This document shows positions 5,255 through 61,418 of a stretch of 64,000 bases of DNA, piece after piece; position 1 is the first letter of the stretch; each line of letters starts with the position of its first letter. The notes beneath the pieces are model-generated. The model did not search any database. It worked only from the letters and a program-made list of their open reading frames with translations, and was not told where the DNA came from. Origin of the DNA: Candidatus Zixiibacteriota bacterium. Its GTDB lineage: Bacteria; Zixibacteria; MSB-5A5; GN15; FEB-12. The translations under genes were made by a program, and so were the position numbers. The DNA lies in contig JBATNE010000244.1 in the NCBI GenBank assembly GCA_049290195.1, positions 145 to 64,144 of the forward strand. The letters are read 5' to 3'.

Positions 5255-7885
5255 CTAAAGAATAACAGCCAGCTTGCCTATTTGCACTTTGCCGTCGATA
5301 TCTTCGACCGTCCAATAATACAGCCCGGACACAATTGCCTGCGTGTTGCGGCTGATCATGTCCCAGACTTCGTAATGGCACTTGGAATCCGCGGGACTCA
5401 CATCGTGGTCAATCTGCTTGATCAAGTCGCCGTCGAGCGTCAGAATTCTGATCGTGCACTTGGCCGGAACGTTGACGAAATGGACGGCGTGTGCCCGGCT
5501 ATCCGGCAAGTCCAGTTTACCGTGGGCTTCGTACCCCTGGGTGCGGTAATTGGCATCCCCTCGATACGGATTCGGATAGATATAGACCGGAGGGAGTGGT
5601 CCGGAGGCCTGATTGGCATCAGCCTGCGGATAAGTGGCTATGGGGTTCAGGGACTTGGCCGTTTCCAGCGGCTGCAGGCCTTGCTGCGGTGAGCCGTAGT
5701 CAAAGGACGTCACGTTTACATAATAGAGCAGGGTCGGGAGGAGCTGGTCAATCGTGCATTCGTATTCCCAGTACTTGAGGAAACCGTCATCGGTCAGATC
5801 TTCCGGTGCCGGGTTATGTGGATCGACCGGGCGAGGTGCATTGGGAAAGCGCTTATAGATCGGCGTGTTGATTCCCAGCTTGAAAGCGTTGGCATCATGA
5901 GCGGCAAAGTAGAAGATGGAATCCGGATAGATCGCGCTTCGCCACGGATTGTCTATCCCAAAGAAGACCGGGTCGAGGAGCGTGTCATTGCACGGGTCAT
6001 CCTGCTTGCTGAAGCGGCACCGAATCGCCGATAGGGATACCGGTGTCCCCTGGAGTTCCCATCCGGGGCGAGGTTTGTGATTCTTATTGAAGAAGTAGAT
6101 ATCATAGTCTTCCCGGTCATATGATCCGATCAGGGCAAGACTTCCTTCCCGCTCATCGAGTCCCAGATAGACGTGATAGCCTTCAAAATCCAGTTCATTG
6201 GTGAGAAAGTCTCTGGTTGTTTCCGTGCGGTATCCGTTGAACCGGACGATCAAGCCATCACGCTTGGGGTAGACCCAGACTTTCGGCGCGGGAGGCGGCG
6301 ACGACGCCTTCCAGTCAGGCACGCCGTCCCCTTCGTAATAAATGGTGTCGGCCGATGAGGGCTTCCATTCTCCGTCGACTTTTTCAGAGTCGATTACGCA
6401 CACCTGAAATTTGCCGGCATAACCGTCGCTGTCGGTGTCGAGGCCGGGCGTGTCAAAAACCCGCGCAGCCCAGGCGGCATTCTTGGACAGTTCGGAGAAA
6501 TTCAGGTCATTGTAGAACTGGTACGGCAGGTACCGCCACATAATCTGGTAGAAGAAATTGTTCACGTCGGTATGGAAATTCTCTGCACCGACGATAGCGA
6601 ACGGAACGTTGATTTCATCGCCCGGGTCCAGATTGTAGGGCCCAGTGGACATGAGGAAACTTCCGTCTCCCCCTCGGATAAATGTCCGCACTTCGTCCTC
6701 GTTGGGCACGGCGACAACCGGATCGACCTGCGACAGCGTTCCGAGCCAGGCCTGATCGATGTCAATATCACCGTTGTGCAGCAAGAAATACTTGTTCTTG
6801 TCCCCGTACGGTGTGCCGGTCCCCATGTCCCGGTAATTACTGCGAAGCTGCGGACCGTAATCATACGGGCCGTTGATCGCCCACCAGTTGAACGACATGG
6901 CACGTTCCGCGGAAGGCGGCCGCAGGAAGCGAACGCCCAGAACATTGGGGAGCTGAAAAGTTCCGTCGTAGATAGAACCGTCGCCATCGTTGTCCGCTGT
7001 CCAGGCTACACGGACCGTATCATTGAATTCGCACGGAGTGGTGAGATACTTCGCCGGAGCAGCCAGAAGGAACCCGGTCATGTCGTCCCGACCACCTCCC
7101 GGAAACTTGAAGGCGCCGCCATCGCCGACCGGCGGCGGGGGAGGGAATGTCAGAAACCTGTTCACGTCGATATCCATGTAGACACCGACATAGGCGCTCT
7201 TGATGGAATTTCTCCCAACGTTTCTGATTCTCAGGTTGAAAAGAATGAAGTCCTGCGTATAACCGAAAGACCAGACGTACGATGACTGTTGCACCTCAAG
7301 GCCGAGCGGGCGGTGCGGACGATTAGTCTCCGCGTCGATCGATGGATATGCATTCGGGGCGACCACCGTATCAGTATACGTGGCGATAAAGTCCTGTTCG
7401 CTGACGGCCCCGTCGTAGAGCGGCGAAAGGGGATCGATCGATGACCGGCGGACGATTTGTCCCAGCGGAGCGACCCCCGGATTGAACTCTCGATAAAAGT
7501 TGTTCATGTCGGTACTGGCAGATACAAGTGTATCATTCCCAACGACGCCGCCGATCCAAATCCCGCCTTTGTACAGGTAGACCGTGGCCGAACCCCTGGG
7601 GAACTGGCACGAGGGGGCAATGCCTCCGTTAAACGCATCGATAACCGGGTCATCTTTGCCCGTGCCGAAACGTCCGAAATTGGAGACTGAGAGTGCCATC
7701 TTGCCAATATTGTGCACGGCAGTTTGATACATGGGAGAGGCGGCGAGCGCTGACGATTGTCTCGTCCTCGTGCTGTCCTGGGCCCACAGGCCCGGCGCCA
7801 AAAACCCGAGGGCAATCGCGATTTGCAGTGGATTCCGGATTGACCCAACTATAGTCGCGCCGAGGTGTCGAAGAGTCGTTTTCAC
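5255..7885 (-). CDS. Large secreted protein with T9SS-type C-terminal sorting domain
   Basis: The C-terminal ~90 aa begin at YIYPNPYRG and end ...GLYYWTVEDIDGKVQIGKLAVIL, a Por_Secre_tail-like pattern. A signal-peptide-like segment (KTTLRHLGATIVGSIRNPLQIAIALGFLAPGLWAQD) follows a GTG at 7885. The ORF is open up to 8113, but that 76-aa extension is not protein-like. Confidence 0.7.
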   Translation of the reverse strand: MKTTLRHLGATIVGSIRNPLQIAIALGFLAPGLWAQDSTRTRQSSALAASPMYQTAVHNIGKMALSVSNFGRFGTGKDDPVIDAFNGGIAPSCQFPRGSATVYLYKGGIWIGGVVGNDTLVSASTDMNNFYREFNPGVAPLGQIVRRSSIDPLSPLYDGAVSEQDFIATYTDTVVAPNAYPSIDAETNRPHRPLGLEVQQSSYVWSFGYTQDFILFNLRIRNVGRNSIKSAYVGVYMDIDVNRFLTFPPPPPVGDGGAFKFPGGGRDDMTGFLLAAPAKYLTTPCEFNDTVRVAWTADNDGDGSIYDGTFQLPNVLGVRFLRPPSAERAMSFNWWAINGPYDYGPQLRSNYRDMGTGTPYGDKNKYFLLHNGDIDIDQAWLGTLSQVDPVVAVPNEDEVRTFIRGGDGSFLMSTGPYNLDPGDEINVPFAIVGAENFHTDVNNFFYQIMWRYLPYQFYNDLNFSELSKNAAWAARVFDTPGLDTDSDGYAGKFQVCVIDSEKVDGEWKPSSADTIYYEGDGVPDWKASSPPPAPKVWVYPKRDGLIVRFNGYRTETTRDFLTNELDFEGYHVYLGLDEREGSLALIGSYDREDYDIYFFNKNHKPRPGWELQGTPVSLSAIRCRFSKQDDPCNDTLLDPVFFGIDNPWRSAIYPDSIFYFAAHDANAFKLGINTPIYKRFPNAPRPVDPHNPAPEDLTDDGFLKYWEYECTIDQLLPTLLYYVNVTSFDYGSPQQGLQPLETAKSLNPIATYPQADANQASGPLPPVYIYPNPYRGDANYRTQGYEAHGKLDLPDSRAHAVHFVNVPAKCTIRILTLDGDLIKQIDHDVSPADSKCHYEVWDMISRNTQAIVSGLYYWTVEDIDGKVQIGKLAVIL

Positions 7886-8274
7886 AGTGGCTGTAAGTAT
7901 AGGCCCCTGTGCCCGGTACCACAAGAGGGAATTCCCCTTATCGTCGCTGGGAACTCCCTGTCGCAAATTCTGCTCTTGAAACACGTTACCCGCTCCGCCC
8001 GCCCGGTGAGGTCCGAGTGTGCATTTTTTGCACTCCGGGACAGACCGGGCCGGTGGAATAATACTGGACTCGGTCAGTCCATTTAGCGACCTTGCCGGGT
8101 GGAAATACGACATTTTGTCGGATGATGATTCAGAGAAATTACTCTTACCCCGATAATAATTAAGGTGGAACAGCAGTGGACATTACGAAACGCTCTTTTG
8201 GTGTATCCCGGGCTTTGCGTAAAGTGCGTGGACATGGGGGTGGACTGCCGGACGGTCCAAGCGGGAATGGGACA

Positions 8275-8811
8275 ATGGTAAAACGAATATCAACGATGCT
8301 CTTCGTACTTTTCCTTCTGGTCGCGGCCAATGGTCGCGCCGATGGAGATGACGATAATTACAAGGCGGACTTCATCATCAAATTGTTCAGCTATGTCGAT
8401 TGGCCCGCCGGCAAGGCAGCCGGCGCCGATGGTGCCGTTACGGTCGGTGTTGTGGGTCCCGCGAGTTGTATGGCTCAGCTGAAAGCCGCCGCCGACAAAC
8501 GTACCGGTGAAGGCAAGAAGACGATCGTCAAGGAGCTTGCTATCGACGGTGACTTTTCGGGCTGCCAGGTGGTGTTCTTTCAGACTCAGGAGAAACCGGA
8601 GTTGGCAAAGATCCTCAAGAAGATTGGTGGTCAGCCGATCCTCAGTGTCGGTGACTGTCCGGGCTTTGCCAAGTTCGGCGTCATGGTGAATTTCTATACC
8701 GAGGCTGACGGCGGCAAGACCAAAGTGAAATTCGAGATCAATACGGTTACAGTGGGGGATGCGCAGTTAAAGATCAGTTCGAGCTTGTTGAAATTGGCTC
8801 GCCTGATTTAG
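8275..8811 (+). CDS. YfiR-like periplasmic protein (DUF4154)
   Basis: Signal peptide MVKRISTMLFVLFLLVAANGRADG. YKADFIIKLFSYVDWP and the C-terminal FEINTVTVGDAQLKISSSLLKLARLI match the DUF4154/YfiR pattern. Confidence 0.7.
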   Translation: MVKRISTMLFVLFLLVAANGRADGDDDNYKADFIIKLFSYVDWPAGKAAGADGAVTVGVVGPASCMAQLKAAADKRTGEGKKTIVKELAIDGDFSGCQVVFFQTQEKPELAKILKKIGGQPILSVGDCPGFAKFGVMVNFYTEADGGKTKVKFEINTVTVGDAQLKISSSLLKLARLI

Positions 8812-52814: not shown

Positions 52815-54290
52815 GTGAAAAAGAACCTTCCCTCTACCCTGGGTGAACTGAAGAAGTCCGGCTGGGAAAGCCGCACAGTCAAAGATGAAATACGCCAGAA
52901 TCTCCTGCAGAAACTCCGGGCGGGGGAAAAGCCGTTTCCGGGGATTGTCGGATATGAGAAGACCGTCGTTCCGCAGCTGCAGAACGCCCTGTTATCTGAA
53001 CATAACTTCATTCTTCTCGGTCTGCGCGGACAGGCGAAGAGCAGAATCATTCGCCAGCTGGCGTCACTTCTCGATGAATGGCAGCCGTATCTGGCCGGCA
53101 CTTATCTCAATGAAGACCCTTACAAGCCGATCTCTCCCAAGGGTCAGGCGATTATCGCCGATCTCGGCGACAAAGCGCCGATCGAATGGAAATCCCGCGA
53201 AGAACGATACCACGAGAAACTCGCCACCCCCGATGTCTCTATCGCCGACCTGATCGGTGATATCGACCCGATCAAAGCCGCCCGTGAGAAACTGGATATC
53301 TCCAACGAGGAAGTCATCCACTGGGGAATCATCCCCAGAACCAACCGAGGTATATTCGCGATCAACGAACTCCCGGACCTTCAGCCGCGCATTCAAGTGG
53401 GTCTGCTGAATATCCTCGAAGAAAACGACATCCAGGTGCGCGGATTTCCGCTCCGGGTGCCGCTGGATATCATGATCGTTTTTTCTGCCAATCCCGAAGA
53501 TTACACCAATCGCGGCAATATTATCACGCCGCTCAAGGATCGTATCGACTCGCAAATTGTAACGCACTACCCGCGTACGCTCGAGGATGCCAAGGCGATC
53601 ACCGCTTCCGAGCATTCCGGCAAGGACAAGAATATCACGATTCCGGAACTGGTACGGGATATTGTCGAAGAGGTCTCCTTCCAGGCGCGCGCCAGTGAAT
53701 TTGTCGACCAGAGTTCCGGTGTATCGGCTCGAGTCTCGATCTCAGCCTTCGAGAACCTGCTTTCGAATATTGAGCGTCGCGCCCTCATGACCAACGACTC
53801 CGATCTTTATCCTCGGCTGACCGATTTGTATGCCATGATTCCATCGGTCACCGGAAAGATTGAACTCGTCTACGAGGGTGAGCAGGAAGGTTCAATTCTC
53901 GTCGCGCACGGTTTGATCGGCAAAGCGATAAACGCCGTCTTTCTTCAGCACTTCCCGGCCCCCACCAAGGAGAAACAGCATCCGGACCGCGCTTCTCACA
54001 ATCCGTATGAAGCGGTCATCGATTATTTCTCGACCGGCCAGAAGGTCGAGTTGGCCGATGATCTCCCGTTTGCCGAGTACAAGAAGCGGCTTGAGTCAGT
54101 CGCCGGTCTTCGCCAGATCGTGAAACAGAATTTCGACACTCCGGACGAACGGGAACTGCTCTTCCGCATGGAACTGGCGCTCGATGGTCTCCATCACAAC
54201 AACATCCTCGCGCGCGAAGAAGTCGATTCGCTGGTTCGGTACGCTGACATTTTCTCTGATATGCTGAAGGGGATGAGAGGAAATCAGTGA
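52815..54290 (+). CDS. AAA+ ATPase, Mg-chelatase subunit I (ChlI/BchI)-like
   Basis: AAGGAG SD and a GTG start. Walker A GLRGQAKS, Walker B-like IFAINELPDL, and sensor/arginine-finger region VFSANPEDYTNRGNIITPLKDR. Paired with a vWA gene by start/stop overlap. Confidence 0.8.
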   Translation: MKKNLPSTLGELKKSGWESRTVKDEIRQNLLQKLRAGEKPFPGIVGYEKTVVPQLQNALLSEHNFILLGLRGQAKSRIIRQLASLLDEWQPYLAGTYLNEDPYKPISPKGQAIIADLGDKAPIEWKSREERYHEKLATPDVSIADLIGDIDPIKAAREKLDISNEEVIHWGIIPRTNRGIFAINELPDLQPRIQVGLLNILEENDIQVRGFPLRVPLDIMIVFSANPEDYTNRGNIITPLKDRIDSQIVTHYPRTLEDAKAITASEHSGKDKNITIPELVRDIVEEVSFQARASEFVDQSSGVSARVSISAFENLLSNIERRALMTNDSDLYPRLTDLYAMIPSVTGKIELVYEGEQEGSILVAHGLIGKAINAVFLQHFPAPTKEKQHPDRASHNPYEAVIDYFSTGQKVELADDLPFAEYKKRLESVAGLRQIVKQNFDTPDERELLFRMELALDGLHHNNILAREEVDSLVRYADIFSDMLKGMRGNQ

Positions 54291-55378
54291 AATTCGTCTA
54301 CTCCAAGTGGGATGATGCCGCCTTTGCCCGCCTGAAGGATATCTCCGACCTGATGGCGATCTATCATTATCTGCTGATGCGCCTGAACGGCAATGTCCAG
54401 GAGACGCTGGATATGATGAAGCGGCTTCAGGAACAGGGAGTGCTCGATGAGAAATACGATCTCGAGGAACTTGAGAAGTTGCTTCAAGACTCAAATCTCG
54501 TCCGCCAGGGTCCCGATGGGCTCCGCCTGAGCCCAAAAGGGGAGCGCGGTTTGCGGCGCGATGCCTTCAACCAGATATTCGAGAAGCTCCGCACATCCGG
54601 TAAGGGAGACCACCGCCTTCCGCACGAAGGAGGGACGTCAGATGAACCTTTGCCCGAACGGCGCAGTTTCAATTTCGGCGACAACCCCGGGAATATCGAT
54701 TTCACCGCATCGCTGTTCAATTCCATCGTCCGGACCGGCGACCTCGGGCTTTCCATGCACGAAGATGATCTCGAAGTGTTCGAGTCTGAAAAGGCCGGCT
54801 CCTGCGCGACCGTTCTGATGATCGATATATCGCACTCGATGGTATTATATGGCGAGGATCGGATCACCCCGGCCAAGCAAGTGGCCATGGCCTTTACTGA
54901 ATTGATCCTCACCAAGTACCCCAAAGATGATCTGTCGATTGTCCTCTTTGGCGATGATGCCTGGGAGGTTTCGATCAAAGAGCTTCCCTATATCGGCGCC
55001 GGACCCTATCACACCAACACGCAGGCGGGATTGCGGGTGGCTCGCCAGATTCTGATGACCAAGAAGCACGCCAACAAGCAGATCTTCATGGTCACCGACG
55101 GTAAGCCCTCTATGATCACCCGCGCCAACGGACAGATCTACAAGAATCCGATGGGGCTGGATCCCCGCATAGTCAATCGCACACTCGATGAGGCGGTAAT
55201 CTGTCGCAAGAAGAAGATACCGATCACGACCTTCATGGTGACCGATGACCCCTATTTGCAGAAATTCGTCGAGCGGCTGACCGAATTGAACCGGGGGAGA
55301 GCCTATTTCGCTTCGGTTGACAACCTCGGCTCCTATGTCTTCTGGGACTTTGTCTCCAATCGCAAGAAGAAGAAATAG
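54287..55378 (+). CDS. von Willebrand factor A (vWA) domain protein
   Basis: MIDAS motif VLMIDISHSM (DxSxS) with later T and D positions (FMVTDGKPS). 363 aa. GTGA overlap with the ATPase stop. Confidence 0.8.
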   Translation: MKFVYSKWDDAAFARLKDISDLMAIYHYLLMRLNGNVQETLDMMKRLQEQGVLDEKYDLEELEKLLQDSNLVRQGPDGLRLSPKGERGLRRDAFNQIFEKLRTSGKGDHRLPHEGGTSDEPLPERRSFNFGDNPGNIDFTASLFNSIVRTGDLGLSMHEDDLEVFESEKAGSCATVLMIDISHSMVLYGEDRITPAKQVAMAFTELILTKYPKDDLSIVLFGDDAWEVSIKELPYIGAGPYHTNTQAGLRVARQILMTKKHANKQIFMVTDGKPSMITRANGQIYKNPMGLDPRIVNRTLDEAVICRKKKIPITTFMVTDDPYLQKFVERLTELNRGRAYFASVDNLGSYVFWDFVSNRKKKK

Positions 55379-55608: not shown

Positions 55609-56940
55609 ATGAAAGCGTCCCGATACAACATTACAGTCCCTCTTGTCTCCGGACAGACTCTCCTCTTTAACAGCGCTACCGTAGCCCTTGCGGAGATTGA
55701 CCCGGTCGATCTCTCTGATGTCACATATGTGCTGGCCGAACCGGAATCGGAGCGGTCCTCCCACCAGGAAGAAATCTTTCAGATACTGTGCGACGGCAAA
55801 TTTCTCGTCCCGGCAGAAATCGACGAACTGGCCGCCATGACCACGCGCAATCGGCTGCAACGATTTGGCGGCGATACTCTGTTTCTGACAATCGCGCCCA
55901 CGCTTGGCTGCAATTTCGACTGCCCCTACTGCTTTGAGAGCAGGAATTCCGCCGGCTCAATGGATGCGGAGACGGAACGAGCGCTTCTAGAATTCGCCCG
56001 TTCCCGCGTCCATGGCACAAAACAGATCCTGGTCACCTGGTTTGGCGGGGAACCTACTCTCTGTCTTGACCTGATCGAGCGGGTCCAGACCGCACTGCAG
56101 CGCCTTGCCCATGAGAAGTCCGTCTCGCTCCTGCCGGCATCGATGGTCACCAACGGCTATCTCCTCGATCGGGCCGCCGCCCGCCGCTTAAACGATCTCG
56201 ATATCAAGGATATCCAGATTACGCTCGATGGTCCCCGCGAATCGCATGACAGACGAAGAACACTGGTCGGTGGCGGACCGACTTTCGACCGCATCATCGC
56301 CAATATAGAGAGCGCGCTGGATCTCCTGCAGATCACGATCCGGATGAACATCGATCGCAGCAACTCCGACGCTGCTGTCGCGCTGACGCGCGAACTCAAT
56401 GACCGTGGCATTCTCGGCAAAGCGAATCTCTACTTTGCTCCCATTGCCGATGCCGGCGGCAGCTGTACCGATGTCAAAGGGCTATGTCTCGCTCCGGCGG
56501 CATTTTCCCACCTGCAGGTAGAGTTGTACCGACGTCTGCAACAGGAGGGGATAAATCACATGGAATACCCCATGCTGGCCCCAGGAGGACACTGCGGCGC
56601 CGACAGCGATAACTCATTTGTCATCTCTCCGTCGGGAGATCTATTCAAATGCTGGGAAGAGATTTCACTCGATCGCTCGCACTCTATCGGGTCGATCTTC
56701 TTCGAGGATCGCTCGCCGCGTCAACAAGCCAACAGAGACAAGTATCTGGCCTGGGACCCGCTCTCTCTGCCGACCTGTCAGCGCTGCAACGTGCTTCCAT
56801 TGTGTATGGGAGGATGCCCCCGACAGTCGCTCGATAAGGAGAAAATTCGCCGCGGTGCCTGTTGCTCGTGGAAATACAACCTATCCGATATGCTGGCAAT
56901 TCGCCACCACTCTGAACGCCGAAAGGAGGTGACATCGTGA
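55609..56940 (+). CDS. Radical SAM/SPASM peptide-maturase-like enzyme with ~95-aa N-terminal extension
   Basis: CNFDCPYC (Cx3Cx2C) cluster motif. SPASM auxiliary-cluster cysteines (CGADSDNSFVISPSGDLFKC ... CQRCNVLPLCMGGCP). The N-terminal SRYNITVPLVSGQTLLFNSATVALAEID pattern is typical of AslB-like peptide-modifying rSAMs. Confidence 0.9.
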   Translation: MKASRYNITVPLVSGQTLLFNSATVALAEIDPVDLSDVTYVLAEPESERSSHQEEIFQILCDGKFLVPAEIDELAAMTTRNRLQRFGGDTLFLTIAPTLGCNFDCPYCFESRNSAGSMDAETERALLEFARSRVHGTKQILVTWFGGEPTLCLDLIERVQTALQRLAHEKSVSLLPASMVTNGYLLDRAAARRLNDLDIKDIQITLDGPRESHDRRRTLVGGGPTFDRIIANIESALDLLQITIRMNIDRSNSDAAVALTRELNDRGILGKANLYFAPIADAGGSCTDVKGLCLAPAAFSHLQVELYRRLQQEGINHMEYPMLAPGGHCGADSDNSFVISPSGDLFKCWEEISLDRSHSIGSIFFEDRSPRQQANRDKYLAWDPLSLPTCQRCNVLPLCMGGCPRQSLDKEKIRRGACCSWKYNLSDMLAIRHHSERRKEVTS

Positions 56941-57026
56941 AGTTAGTGCAGAAACCCCAGACGCCGAGCGCCATTCCGTGCCCGTGCTACAAGAAGCTGT
57001 TTCTCATCATTCCGAGAGAAAGCTAA
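56937..57026 (+). CDS. Candidate 29-aa precursor peptide (not in ORF track): MKLVQKPQTPSAIPCPCYKKLFLIIPRES
   Basis: GAAAGGAGGTGA (56921-56932) is a 12-nt complement of the canonical 16S 3' tail. The GGAGG core lies 7 nt before GTG 56937. The GTG overlaps the rSAM stop (GTGA). The peptide has a CPC motif and a Pro-rich centre. The ORF sits between two rSAM/SPASM genes and is followed by a strong hairpin. Confidence 0.55.
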   Translation: MKLVQKPQTPSAIPCPCYKKLFLIIPRES

Positions 57027-57045
57027 GAATAGTTGATTCTGCTCA

Positions 57046-57073
57046 GGGGATGGAGACCTCATGGTCCATCCCC
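57046..57073 (+). promoter_or_regulatory. Strong stem-loop immediately after the small ORF (attenuator/processing-site candidate)
   Basis: GGGGATGG-AG-ACC TCAT GGT CCATCCCC (8+3 bp with a 2-nt bulge), followed by TCTTGAAAT. A second hairpin CGGGCGA-N10-TCGCCCG lies at 57083-57106. Confidence 0.45.
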
Positions 57074-57124
57074 TCTTGAAATGCGGGCGATGACGTTGTG
57101 TCGCCCGAGAACCGAAAGGACTGC

Positions 57125-58132
57125 ATGCGATCCGAACAGCCTGAAATGGTAGGCTGGGAAATAACCCGGCAGTGCAATCTCACCTGTCCGCACTGCTATA
57201 CGGCCGCGACCCGTCGACCTATGCCGGACCTGAGCACCCCTGAGTGCAAGGCCATTATCGACGATCTCGCAACCATGGGGACGCGATCGATCGGCTGGAC
57301 CGGCGGCGAACCGCTTCTGCGGGCTGATCTTGAAGAGATCGTAGCCTATGGAAAGGCAAAGGGGAATTTCCGTCAGGGAGTCACTACCAACGGCGTGCTG
57401 CTCGACGAATCACGCGCTCGCTCGCTCAAAGCGGCCGGCATCACCTACATCCAGATCAGTCTCGATGGTTCCAATCCGGAACAAAACATGATCATGCGGC
57501 GAATGACCGAAGATGAGTTCAACAAGATCATCGAGGCTGTCCGGATCTGCAAGCGGCTGGAGCTTACGCTTGATCTGGCCATGCTTCTGGGGCGCGACAC
57601 GATCGACGACGCCTGGGAGTTCATCAAGCTCGCCCGGCGCGAAGGGGTCAGCCATATTCGGTATTGCGGATTTGTCCCGTGGGGGAGAGGGAAGCAGAAG
57701 GATGTTGTGGAACGGCTTTTGTTCCGAGAGGACCGGGACAAGCTGCGGCAATTCGTGCTTGATGCAGCTGATATTAAGGATCCTATTCAGATGTTCGACC
57801 CTGCGTTCGGCCCGCTGCCTCCCAACTATGAATTCCATGACTGCATCGCAGGCAAGCAGATGCTCTATATCTCTTCCACCGGCGAGGTCTATCCCTGCAC
57901 CTCCCTTTTGGACAAGCAATTCTGTGTTGGGAATCTCCACCATCGGTCCATCCGCGAGCTTTGGAATGATCCCAAAATGACCGAAATGTCCGAATTTCCC
58001 TTTGAGAATATCCACGGCACTTGCCGGTCCTGCGAAACCTTCCCAGTTTGCCACGGTGGTTGCCGGGGAATAACTTACGCCCATACCCGCGATCTATTGG
58101 CCTCATTTCCGATGTGCCTCAAACAGGCCTGA
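57125..58132 (+). CDS. Radical SAM/SPASM enzyme, PqqE/MftC/NirJ-like (no N-terminal extension)
   Basis: CNLTCPHC cluster motif right at the N-terminus, GWTGGEPLL SAM motif, and SPASM cysteines (CIAGKQMLYISSTGEVYPC ... CRSCETFPVCHGGCRG). GAAAGGA SD before ATG 57125; the ORF track starts at GTG 57098. Confidence 0.9.
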   Translation: MRSEQPEMVGWEITRQCNLTCPHCYTAATRRPMPDLSTPECKAIIDDLATMGTRSIGWTGGEPLLRADLEEIVAYGKAKGNFRQGVTTNGVLLDESRARSLKAAGITYIQISLDGSNPEQNMIMRRMTEDEFNKIIEAVRICKRLELTLDLAMLLGRDTIDDAWEFIKLARREGVSHIRYCGFVPWGRGKQKDVVERLLFREDRDKLRQFVLDAADIKDPIQMFDPAFGPLPPNYEFHDCIAGKQMLYISSTGEVYPCTSLLDKQFCVGNLHHRSIRELWNDPKMTEMSEFPFENIHGTCRSCETFPVCHGGCRGITYAHTRDLLASFPMCLKQA

Positions 58133-58223
58133 TCCGACCTAACTGCCTACCCCTCAAGCGAATTCAGGATTCTGCCGATATCTATACGATCGGGTCCCAC
58201 TCGCACTAAAGGAGCTATGTTAG

Positions 58224-58685
58224 GTGATTTCTACTGGTGACCATCGCGGATTCACGCTGATCGAACTGGTCATTGTGATTGTGGTTTTGGGCATTTTGGC
58301 GAGCGTCGCTGTCCCCAAATACCGGGACGTCACCAACCAGGCCAAAGAAAGCGCCTGCCGATCATCGCTGTCTTCTCTGCGTCAGGGGATCGTCCTCTGG
58401 CAGGCAAATAATATCATTAAGACCGGGGTCAAAACATTTCCGCCAAGAGACAGCCTTGCTACCGTCGGCATCGTCATGTCTCAGACGATTCCGCCCAATC
58501 CCTTTCAAGATGATTCTAAAGCGCCTGATTCAATTGTGACTGGAGTCACCAAGGGTGTGGTAGTCGGGACTCGTGGCGGCTGGGCCTATAAGGCCAGTAC
58601 CGGCCAGATCTGGCCCAATACCAGCACTTCGGTCACCGTAACCGGCTGCGGCAGTCCCGTGTCGGTGGGCGAGAACACCTGGTAA
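58224..58685 (+). CDS. Prepilin-type N-terminal cleavage/methylation domain protein (type IV pilin / pseudopilin-like)
   Basis: Class III signal ...DHRG|FTLIELVIVIVVLGILASVAVPKY with Glu5. 153 aa. AAAGGAG SD 9 nt before the GTG start. Confidence 0.85.
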   Translation: MISTGDHRGFTLIELVIVIVVLGILASVAVPKYRDVTNQAKESACRSSLSSLRQGIVLWQANNIIKTGVKTFPPRDSLATVGIVMSQTIPPNPFQDDSKAPDSIVTGVTKGVVVGTRGGWAYKASTGQIWPNTSTSVTVTGCGSPVSVGENTW

Positions 58686-60764: not shown

Positions 60765-61418
60765 ATGAAAAAGTTTCTACTCATGGGCTTGGCTTGTCTC
60801 GCGCTTTTGGCGCTGGTAGCCGCCCCGACATTCGCCTGCGGCGAAAATGGCAAGTCCGCGTCGACCACCACCACCGATGGTAAGCTGGTCAGTGCCGATG
60901 GCAAAGCTTCGTGCGATGGCGCCAAGGCGACCTCCGCCGATGCCAAAGCTTGTGACGCCGCCAAAGGCGCCAAGATGACCTCCGCCGACGGCAAAGCCAG
61001 TTGCGCCGCTCATGGCTCTATGACCTCGGCCGATGGTGCCAAGTGCACGGCTGCCGATGGCAAGAACTGCGAAATGGTCAATATGTCGGTTTCCGGCATG
61101 ACCTGCGGTGGATGCGAATCTACCGTTCGCGCTTCTCTGGAAAAGATCCCCGGCGTGATCAAGGTCGTCAATGTTTCCTACAAGGACAAAGTCGCCCTCG
61201 TCTGCGTCGACCCGACCAAGTGCAAGAAGGACATGCTCACCACGGCTGTGACCAACAACGGTTACGAAGCCCAGATCATTCCGGCTGTCGCTACCTCCGG
61301 TACCGATGCCAAGGCTGATTGTGCCGCCAAGTGCGCCGGTATGGACAAGGCTGCCTGTGCTGCCAAGTGCGCCGCCGCCAAGGATGCCAAGGCCAAGACT
61401 CCGGAAGATTCCAAGTAA
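60765..61418 (+). CDS. Secreted heavy-metal-associated (HMA) domain protein with Cys-rich low-complexity flanks
   Basis: GGAAGGAG SD and signal peptide MKKFLLMGLACLALLALVAAPTFA. About 5 copies of an (S/T)ADGK..C-like repeat. HMA core VSGMTCGGCESTVRASLEKIPGV (MxCxxC). C-terminal CAAKC.G..K.ACAAKCAAAK. Confidence 0.8.
   Translation: MKKFLLMGLACLALLALVAAPTFACGENGKSASTTTTDGKLVSADGKASCDGAKATSADAKACDAAKGAKMTSADGKASCAAHGSMTSADGAKCTAADGKNCEMVNMSVSGMTCGGCESTVRASLEKIPGVIKVVNVSYKDKVALVCVDPTKCKKDMLTTAVTNNGYEAQIIPAVATSGTDAKADCAAKCAGMDKAACAAKCAAAKDAKAKTPEDSK

Follow-up and report, generated by a model that had tools for sequence, protein, structure and literature searches.

Does a very short open reading frame (ORF), lying between two genes for radical S-adenosylmethionine (rSAM) enzymes with SPASM domains, encode the substrate of those enzymes? 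This question is raised by a locus of Candidatus Zixiibacteriota bacterium (assembly GCA_049290195.1, contig JBATNE010000244.1), which we analysed within a stretch of 64,000 nucleotides (positions 145 to 64,144 of the contig; the whole stretch is referred to below as the window). An earlier note on this DNA had proposed an uncharacterised system of the type that produces ribosomally synthesised peptides with post-translational modifications (RiPPs), in which a hidden 29-codon ORF is the substrate of the two flanking enzymes. That proposal was borne out by the comparison of related loci, since the enzyme pair and the peptide were found to co-occur in every informative locus. We consider it likely that the first enzyme (rSAM1), a short precursor peptide and the second enzyme (rSAM2) together form a three-part RiPP cassette. 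Its features in the window are as follows.

55609–56940, + strand: rSAM1, 443 aa (ORF call, Pfam Radical_SAM, motifs, AlphaFold2 (AF2) model)
56937–57026, + strand: putative precursor peptide gene, 29 aa, MKLVQKPQTPSAIPCPCYKKLFLIIPRES (ORF call, homologues, codon pattern)
57045–57107, + strand: two stem-loops 3' of the peptide gene (folding energy compared with shuffles)
57125–58132, + strand: rSAM2, 335 aa (ORF call, Pfam and NCBIfam, motifs, AF2 model, Foldseek)

These three ORFs, and a fourth that follows rSAM2 and is described under the neighbouring genes, were each found where the earlier note had placed them, on the + strand.

The 29-codon ORF as a gene

An ORF of 29 codons is by itself unremarkable, because the surrounding 14 kb contains 192 ORFs of at least 25 aa. 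The start codon of this one is a GTG that overlaps the stop codon of rSAM1 (GTGA). The ribosome-binding site, which the earlier note had called exceptional, proved to be the Shine–Dalgarno sequence AAAGGAGGTGA, situated 5 nt upstream of the start. The last codons of rSAM1 (R-K-E-V, AAAGGAGGTG; window 56920–56940) double as this Shine–Dalgarno site, and the same overlap is conserved at the same position in the related loci L001, L002, L009, L018 and others. It may be that R-K-E-V is conserved in rSAM1 for the sake of the ribosome-binding site and not for protein function.

When a profile built from 13 peptides was run against six-frame translations, it recovered the peptide, in the corresponding place and at E values of 1e-14 to 1e-17, from most of the related loci that carry both rSAM1 and rSAM2. 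Further, more divergent peptides were retrieved by a leader-based scan and manual inspection. In L001, which shares upstream synteny with the window and has an rSAM1 that is 54% identical, a 30-aa ORF, MKLVQKPQTPKAIPCPCYRKLFEILPRGSN, occupies the exactly equivalent site. L002, from a Zixibacteria genome in which the neighbourhood is different (rSAM1 48% identical), has two peptide ORFs between its rSAM genes. The window and L001 peptides are identical at 24 of 29 positions, as against 54% for rSAM1 and 60–67% for rSAM2. Comparison of the window peptide gene with six homologues showed that the nucleotide differences were biased to third codon positions (e.g., 6/4/11 and 7/2/10), with 3–7 synonymous codon changes in each comparison. 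Since the ORF is conserved at the same position and the comparative data display this third-position bias, the sequence evidence indicates that it is a protein-coding gene under purifying selection.

The gene has remained hidden from protein databases. The window peptide and four other family members were searched against NCBIfam and Pfam, up to an E value of 10, and nothing significant was returned. Six of eight peptide sequences queried were missing from a large public protein collection and the other two were unnamed there; the exact window peptide was missing.

Co-occurrence of the enzymes and the peptide

A scan of one genome per species yielded 79 loci, and tblastn searches covered 81 loci besides the window. 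Wherever rSAM1 was at least 42% identical to that of the window, an rSAM2 homologue was detected by tblastn directly downstream on the same strand (42 of 42 distinct loci, the window included), with identities of 46–62% in these pair loci. No rSAM2 homologue was detected by tblastn in the loci in which rSAM1 falls below about 41% identity. Peptides were found in all of the pair loci except L020, which is a 2.1-kb contig, and L047, in which the DNA is N-masked. The earlier note had reckoned with homologous enzyme pairs that lack any conserved short ORF; the opposite was observed, the ORF being kept in every informative locus. The reverse check gave a similar picture, as three of three loci seeded from rSAM2 homologues (48–53% identity) showed an rSAM1-type gene upstream and one or more motif-bearing peptides in the gap.

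The cassette is spread over Zixibacteria and GN15 and also occurs in some Acidobacteriota, the surrounding genes being otherwise unrelated. In several genomes there are two or three paralogous copies of it. When all ORFs of at least 70 aa in the pair loci, with flanks of up to 5–6 kb, were clustered, only the two rSAM genes and their shadow ORFs were conserved. Next came the clusters of a sugar-kinase-like gene and of a membrane protein, both confined to 7–8 loci of a single subclade. Hence, the unit consists of rSAM1, the peptide or peptides, and rSAM2, inherited together.

It may be noted that many of the metagenome-assembled genomes that carry the cassette (L006–L017 and others) are labelled 'uncultured Ignavibacteria/Ignavibacteriales', yet their rSAM proteins group with those of Zixibacteria. 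These labels may be unreliable.

Anatomy of the peptide family

The pair loci supplied 51 unique peptide sequences of 26–41 aa (median 30), and a AAAGGAGGTGA-type Shine–Dalgarno sequence precedes all family peptides. The leader is short and conserved, with the consensus M-(K/R)-(F/L/I)-(I/V)-(E/Q/V)-x-(P/S)-(Q/K); a minority of the peptides start with ME(V/I)LEEG instead. At least two Cys residues were present in 51 of 51 sequences, as was the ending of the core, I-(I/L/S..)-(P/C..). An aromatic-x-(I/V)-hydrophobic pattern was seen in 48, and a 49th (..LWIIYP) retains the aromatic-x-Ile spacing. In the subset picked up by an initial motif scan (36 peptides), the distance from the last upstream Cys to the Ile is 5–8 residues. 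The window peptide has a leader of approximately MKLVQKPQ, a core with C15, C17 and the motif F22-L-I-I-P26, and the C-terminus ...IIPRES. A conserved 'CPC/Y' motif, as expected by the earlier note, was not what the family revealed; the conserved elements are instead the two or more Cys and aromatic-x-Ile-(Ile/Leu)-(Pro/Cys).

Variants of the core include PCPCYKKLFLILPPW, CPWYCTRFFPILPP, GCRLFYIIPVC and CAAKGPFYIIC; in others the motif is doubled (HYIIC...YIIC) or followed by a Pro-rich tail. The C-termini are variable across the family, and a peptide variant of L009 ends in ...LFLILPPW. In L010 (6591–6716) and L013 (6576–6701), the precursors have a long Pro-rich tail past the motif (e.g., GCRFFPILPPEPPPPPEPPPIPCPALN) and a second Cys near the C-terminus.

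The peptide gene may precede rSAM1, lie in the gap between the enzymes or follow rSAM2, and there are 1–3 copies of it per locus. Because both position and copy number vary, we take the gene to encode a substrate and not a regulatory leader.

Loci without rSAM2 were informative as to which part of the peptide goes with which enzyme. The hydrophobic motif was found in just one of 21 peptides from such loci. As these loci keep the leader and change the core, the leader appears to track rSAM1 and the aromatic-x-I-I/L-P/C motif to track rSAM2. Moreover, since relatives that lack rSAM2 adjoin Cys-rich peptides with the same leader, recognition of the leader and Cys chemistry would be the ancestral role of rSAM1.

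Four loci of Terriglobia and Acidobacteria, L039–L042, have an rSAM1-like maturase of 38–41% identity and no rSAM2. They contain 1–8 tandem precursors (L040 5393–7424 and L042 7377–8689, both on the − strand; also L039 and L041) with the leader MKFVVRSQ and a core with four Cys, C...C-A-L-C-S-E-D-P-R-F-C. These peptides are a sister RiPP family that matches no named model.

The first enzyme, rSAM1

The CxxxCxxC motif of rSAM1 occupies residues 101–108 (C101/C105/C108), in keeping with the extension of about 95 residues that had been described ahead of the cluster, and the SPASM motifs are complete (C329–C348 and C390–C403). The Pfam Radical_SAM model scored 67.9 bits, above its cut-off, and the cut-off of the SPASM model TIGR04085 was also passed. 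There are more than 1500 homologues, mostly from Zixibacteria. Four NCBIfam models aligned with rSAM1 over its full length at scores below their thresholds, namely TIGR04463 (294.7 bits; cut-off 525), Clo7bot TIGR04334 (272.7; 600), CefB NF038107 (205.5; 600) and geopeptide (157; 400). The models for PapB, anSME, SCIFF and cyclophane enzymes matched more weakly still. Relatives of rSAM1 from other loci likewise stayed below every cut-off, with 276–367 bits for TIGR04463.

The AF2 model of rSAM1 has a predicted local distance difference test (pLDDT) score of 86.9. In this model, residues 1–86 fold as beta-beta-beta-alpha-alpha-alpha with a pLDDT above 90, which is the topology of a RiPP recognition element (RRE). 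The protein would thus comprise an N-terminal RRE-like domain (approximately residues 1–86), the radical SAM core and the SPASM domain. The earlier suggestion that the N-terminal extension holds a peptide-recognition element agrees with this predicted fold, and it is at the level of predicted fold only that the domain is assigned as RRE-like. The closest solved relative by sequence was CteB (E 8e-14). In Foldseek, too, the rSAM1 model matched CteB first, with an alignment over the full length (469 columns; E 3.5e-18); the matches after it were TigE, anSME, SuiB and ChlB.

The second enzyme, rSAM2

The ORF of rSAM2 opens at a GTG at 57098; the start given in public data is the ATG at 57125, which yields 335 aa, and the homologues are of 335–345 aa. 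The protein has a CxxxCxxC motif (C17/C21/C24) and a full seven-Cys SPASM set, and passes both the Radical_SAM and the SPASM cut-offs of Pfam. The SPASM pattern looked for in both enzymes, and present in both, was Cx9-15Gx4C ... Cx2Cx5Cx3C ... C. Its AF2 model (pLDDT 92.7) is compact, with no RRE or other extra domain. In the Foldseek search, PqqE (6c8v) was at the top, and then came the CteB core, SkfB, anSME and SuiB; the substrates of all these enzymes are peptides or proteins.

No named NCBIfam family had its cut-off reached by rSAM2. The scores were 172.5 bits for AhbD (cut-off 500), 152.1 for MftC (265) and 123.5 for PqqE (381); NirJ models gave 131–151 bits (NirJ2 151, cut-off 500), and the cut-offs of the AhbD and NirJ models range over 500–650. 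The MftC and PqqE models align with rSAM2 over the full length, and the best stretch of the AhbD match covers its N-terminal half only. One public source names an rSAM2 homologue 'AdoMet-dependent heme synthase', and the best database match, 'heme synthase AhbD', is one that misleads annotators on this protein.

In L001 (7537–8584), the closest long contig, the rSAM2 homologue is split into two overlapping frames (7537–7977 and 7799–8584), owing either to a frameshift that has made it a pseudogene or to an error in the assembly.

The hairpins after the peptide gene

The earlier note had reported a hairpin after the short ORF, and a GC-rich stem of 10 bp was indeed located at approximately 57045–57074 (GGGGAUGGAG...CCAUCCCC), followed by a second stem at approximately 57083–57107 (GCGGGCGA...UCGCCCGA). 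The folding energy of the 91-nt stretch after the ORF was −38.3 kcal/mol, compared with −25.6 ± 3.3 kcal/mol in shuffles (z −3.8); none of 200 shuffles was as good. A canonical terminator was considered and rejected, as the U-tract is missing and a terminator scan reported none. In other loci, 42 peptide genes were examined, and most are followed at a distance of 15–35 nt by a GC-rich hairpin of 10–16 bp, the structure being kept across loci and the sequence not. The stem-loops in the window probably stabilise the transcript or cause attenuation, so that there is more peptide mRNA relative to the rSAM2 mRNA.

The stem-loop at 57083–57107 overlaps the alternative GTG start of rSAM2 (57098) and lies just 5' of the ATG at 57125. 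It may have an effect on translation initiation of rSAM2.

Comparison with known systems

The families nearest to rSAM1 are those of TIGR04463, Clo7bot and CefB, which, to our knowledge, have been defined bioinformatically, without experimental characterisation. The likeness lies in the full-length alignment of rSAM1, including the N-terminal domain, and in the very short, Cys-containing precursors; an MK-Phi-(I/V)-x-x-P leader also occurs beside distant relatives in Thermus, Clostridiales and Acidobacteria. However, the scores of rSAM1 are roughly half of the cut-offs (525, 600 and 600), so it is not a member. The precursors differ as well. The window peptide does not match the Clo7bot peptide model TIGR04333 (best family member E 0.91, 9.4 bits against 31), and the CefB precursor has a Cys at every fifth position, whereas the window peptide has Cys only at 15 and 17. 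Unlike these Cys-rich maturase families, the present one has 2–4 Cys plus the aromatic-x-I-I/L-P/C motif, and an obligatory second SPASM enzyme.

The thioether synthases CteB (PDB 5wgg/5why) and SkfB, from the ranthipeptide and sactipeptide systems, resemble rSAM1 as modelled in the order RRE, radical SAM and SPASM and in having substrates with Cys; for CteB, the template modelling (TM) score was 0.67–0.70. Sequence identity to them is only 16–19%, the SCIFF maturase model scored 67 bits against 425, and the precursor is not a SCIFF peptide. PqqE and MftC are like rSAM2 in that it is compact, RRE-less, equipped with a full SPASM domain and encoded beside a very short precursor. The known ones pair with a separate RRE protein (PqqD, MftB), whereas the sole RRE predicted here is fused to rSAM1. 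The window peptide has neither the Glu...Tyr arrangement of PqqA nor the C-terminal Val-Tyr of MftA. The pqqABCD gene context is absent as well.

Radical SAM pairs within one RiPP cluster are known for thuricin CD, ruminococcin C, HxsB/HxsC and ScmE/ScmF. From this general background, two SPASM enzymes on one peptide are less unusual than the earlier note implied. HxsB/HxsC, ScmE/ScmF, GeoRSP and TrnC/TrnD (thuricin CD) share with the present locus two SPASM-type enzymes beside one or more short precursors, but the ScmE, ScmF, GeoRSP and HxsB models reached only 57–104 bits against 370–400, and the precursor motifs are unrelated. Triceptides are cyclophane RiPPs of three residues with an aromatic-X-X motif (maturases YhhB, AmcB, FxsB, ChlB). 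A motif of this form is present in 49 of 51 cores, where the residue at position −2 from the invariant Ile/Val is aromatic, and ChlB was among both the sequence and the fold matches of rSAM1. The triceptide enzyme matches span the radical SAM core only (44–61 bits against 362–445), so the likeness is in the motif alone.

Neither anSME nor any other named family that we tried accommodates the two enzymes or the peptide; for anSME, rSAM1 scored 92 and rSAM2 80 bits against 349, and no conserved sulfatase neighbour was present. The earlier note had also allowed for membership of both enzymes in families with known non-peptide substrates, and neither qualifies (AhbD 172 against 500; anSME 80–92 against 349). 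The literature was searched for TIGR04463/Clo7bot, for RiPPs or ranthipeptides of Zixibacteria and for the core motifs (PCPCYK, LFLILPP), and no paper was found, most subscription journals being outside the coverage of the search. Searches for CefB, FlmE and OhkG returned only unrelated uses of the words. The system follows the logic of radical SAM/SPASM RiPPs (ranthipeptides, sactipeptides, Clo7bot-type), and its precursor family, its motif and its obligatory enzyme pair appear to be new.

Candidate RiPP families regularly emerge from genome mining. The present one is well delimited and phylum-wide and has a specific proposed split of roles, with a family of 51 precursor sequences whose motif is linked to two enzymes. 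Hardly any natural products have been characterised from the phyla concerned (Zixibacteria, GN15 and Acidobacteriota). It also marks a gap in annotation, as automated annotation and protein-based genome mining see just two 'orphan' radical SAM proteins at such loci.

Proposed pathway

On the reading that the three genes form a RiPP cassette, the precursor would be made in high yield compared with rSAM2, owing to its strong ribosome-binding site and to the hairpin. The leader (MK-Phi-I-x-x-P-Q) would bind as a strand to the predicted RRE domain of rSAM1, and rSAM1 would then use the conserved Cys to form at least one thioether cross-link. That rSAM1 probably makes such links is suggested by analogy, because it falls in the superfamily of Cys-rich-peptide maturases (TIGR04463, Clo7bot, CefB, geopeptide) and has the thioether synthase CteB as its closest solved structure. 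The fixed spacing of 5–8 residues between Cys and the invariant Ile would be in line with closure of a macrocycle onto the hydrophobic motif.

A second modification would be installed by rSAM2 in the aromatic-x-Ile-(Ile/Leu)-(Pro/Cys) motif, which it probably modifies because motif and enzyme appear together. The candidate chemistries are a C-C cross-link of the cyclophane type (aromatic to i+2), a second thioether, or epimerisation of Ile/Leu. As an RRE is neither part of rSAM2 nor encoded by a gene of its own, this enzyme would have to use the peptide held by rSAM1 or recognise a partly modified core; the substrate would thus be either the rSAM1-bound peptide or an already modified, cyclised one. 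Through the link between motif and rSAM2 it can be asked by what route a SPASM enzyme that lacks an RRE reaches its peptide, and which reaction it carries out at an aliphatic/aromatic motif. The cassette has no genes for removing the leader or for export, and both would be left to unlinked functions.

Two further activities were considered. Cyclopropyl synthases (TvgB/TigE) are marked by a Gly-Tyr-Trp motif, from which auxiliary cluster I receives a Tyr ligand (PMC10878394). An activity of this kind, prompted by the fold match to TigE and the invariant Ile, was rejected since GYW is missing from both rSAM1 and rSAM2. As for epimerisation, EpeE ranked 46 or lower in the fold search with rSAM2 and was missing from the sequence search. 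EpeE/YydG-like epimerases act on Ile and Val; the fold and sequence searches neither support nor exclude such a role for rSAM2.

A more specific version of the pathway is that both SPASM enzymes act in sequence on one core of about 15 residues to give an undescribed scaffold, with a conserved physiological role and not that of an antibiotic. We put this forward tentatively, and on balance doubt it. The scaffold might be, for example, a macrocycle closed by a Cys thioether, to which a cross-link or an epimerised centre at the invariant aromatic-x-Ile-Ile/Leu-Pro is fused. If this were true, the product would be a cofactor, a metal ligand or a signal in Zixibacteria, and rSAM2 would borrow the recognition domain of rSAM1.

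Several points weigh against the cassette as set out above. No linked protease or exporter was conserved in the flanks of the pair loci, which is unusual for secreted RiPPs. Pfam PqqD/RRE models gave no match in the N-terminal 95 residues of four rSAM1 homologues, even at an E value of 10, and the RRE call for rSAM1 therefore rests on the predicted fold. The division of roles between rSAM1 and rSAM2 is drawn from family resemblance and co-occurrence; the roles could be swapped or shared. The strong conservation of the core in the main clade looks more like that of a cofactor precursor than of an antibiotic. Finally, the peptide is known here from DNA alone, as a predicted product.

Alternative explanations

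The product of the cassette might instead be a redox cofactor derived from the peptide, or some other small molecule that stays in the cell, like PQQ (PqqA/PqqE) or mycofactocin (MftA/MftC), and not be secreted. The best-named NCBIfam neighbours of rSAM2 (AhbD, MftC, NirJ and PqqE) and its best structural match, PqqE, are in line with this, as are a precursor as tiny as PqqA or MftA, a core that is better conserved than the enzymes, the lack of a linked exporter, immunity gene or protease, and the wide spread of the cassette across one phylum. On the other hand, the family scores are far under the cut-offs (MftC 152 against 265; PqqE 124 against 381), and there are no conserved tailoring genes comparable to pqqBCDF or mftBDEF; no MftB-like or other cofactor-pathway gene was conserved in the flanks of the pair loci. 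The occurrence of two or three divergent cores in several loci, and of two or three paralogous cassettes in several genomes, is a pattern of natural-product diversification, and the variable C-terminus means that a decarboxylation of the C-terminal Tyr, as by MftC, cannot be the conserved step. We regard a cofactor pathway as improbable.

Still less credit can be given to the idea that the short ORF is a chance frame or a regulatory leader, with rSAM2 a tetrapyrrole or other non-peptide enzyme (AhbD/NirJ-like) beside an orphan maturase. Its attraction is that AhbD, a heme b synthase, is the best NCBIfam match of rSAM2, and that a homologue bears the heme synthase name mentioned above. But the AhbD score is 172 against 500, with the best stretch in the N-terminal half only. 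The amino-acid sequence of the ORF is kept through synonymous changes, and the ORF moves and multiplies within the cassette; rSAM2 strictly co-occurs with rSAM1 and one core motif, and no haem or other tetrapyrrole genes are conserved in the flanks of the pair loci. This explanation is very improbable.

Neighbouring genes

58224–58685, + strand: prepilin-type gene, 153 aa (Pfam N_methyl and TIGR02532)
52815–55378 of the window: MoxR-like AAA+ ATPase (AAA_5) and VWA-domain protein genes, overlapping by 4 nt, just upstream of the cassette

The product of the first of these passed PF07963 (N_methyl; 33.6 bits against 21.2) and TIGR02532 (35.2 against 16.3), and thus has the motif of a type IV pilin or pseudopilin. 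The earlier note had offered, as its second choice, a module in which both rSAM enzymes modify this protein; the gene does lie on the same strand, 91 nt past rSAM2, and this placement recurs on a contig from a 95%-identical relative, but tblastn found no homologue in the 81 other loci, a prepilin-motif regular expression matched in only one of them (L039, on the other strand and some 4 kb away from the maturase), and in L001, where the upstream genes are syntenic with those of the window, rSAM2 is followed by another gene, on the opposite strand, so that such a module is hardly conceivable. The pilin gene is an unrelated neighbour and not a part of the cassette.

The MoxR-type AAA and VWA genes are common to the window and L001, and a VWA gene stands at the edge of the contig of the 95%-identical relative. 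They are missing from the more distant cassette loci.

In one metagenomic contig (L082, 5203–6663), a gene for a thiol-activated (cholesterol-dependent) cytolysin (PF01289) directly follows the cassette, which is unusual for such an organism. Further along the window, 60765–61418 encodes a 217-aa protein that may bind metal in the periplasm; its N-terminus is signal-like, and it has repeated segments with Cys (SADGKASC-type) as well as a single heavy-metal-associated (HMA) domain.

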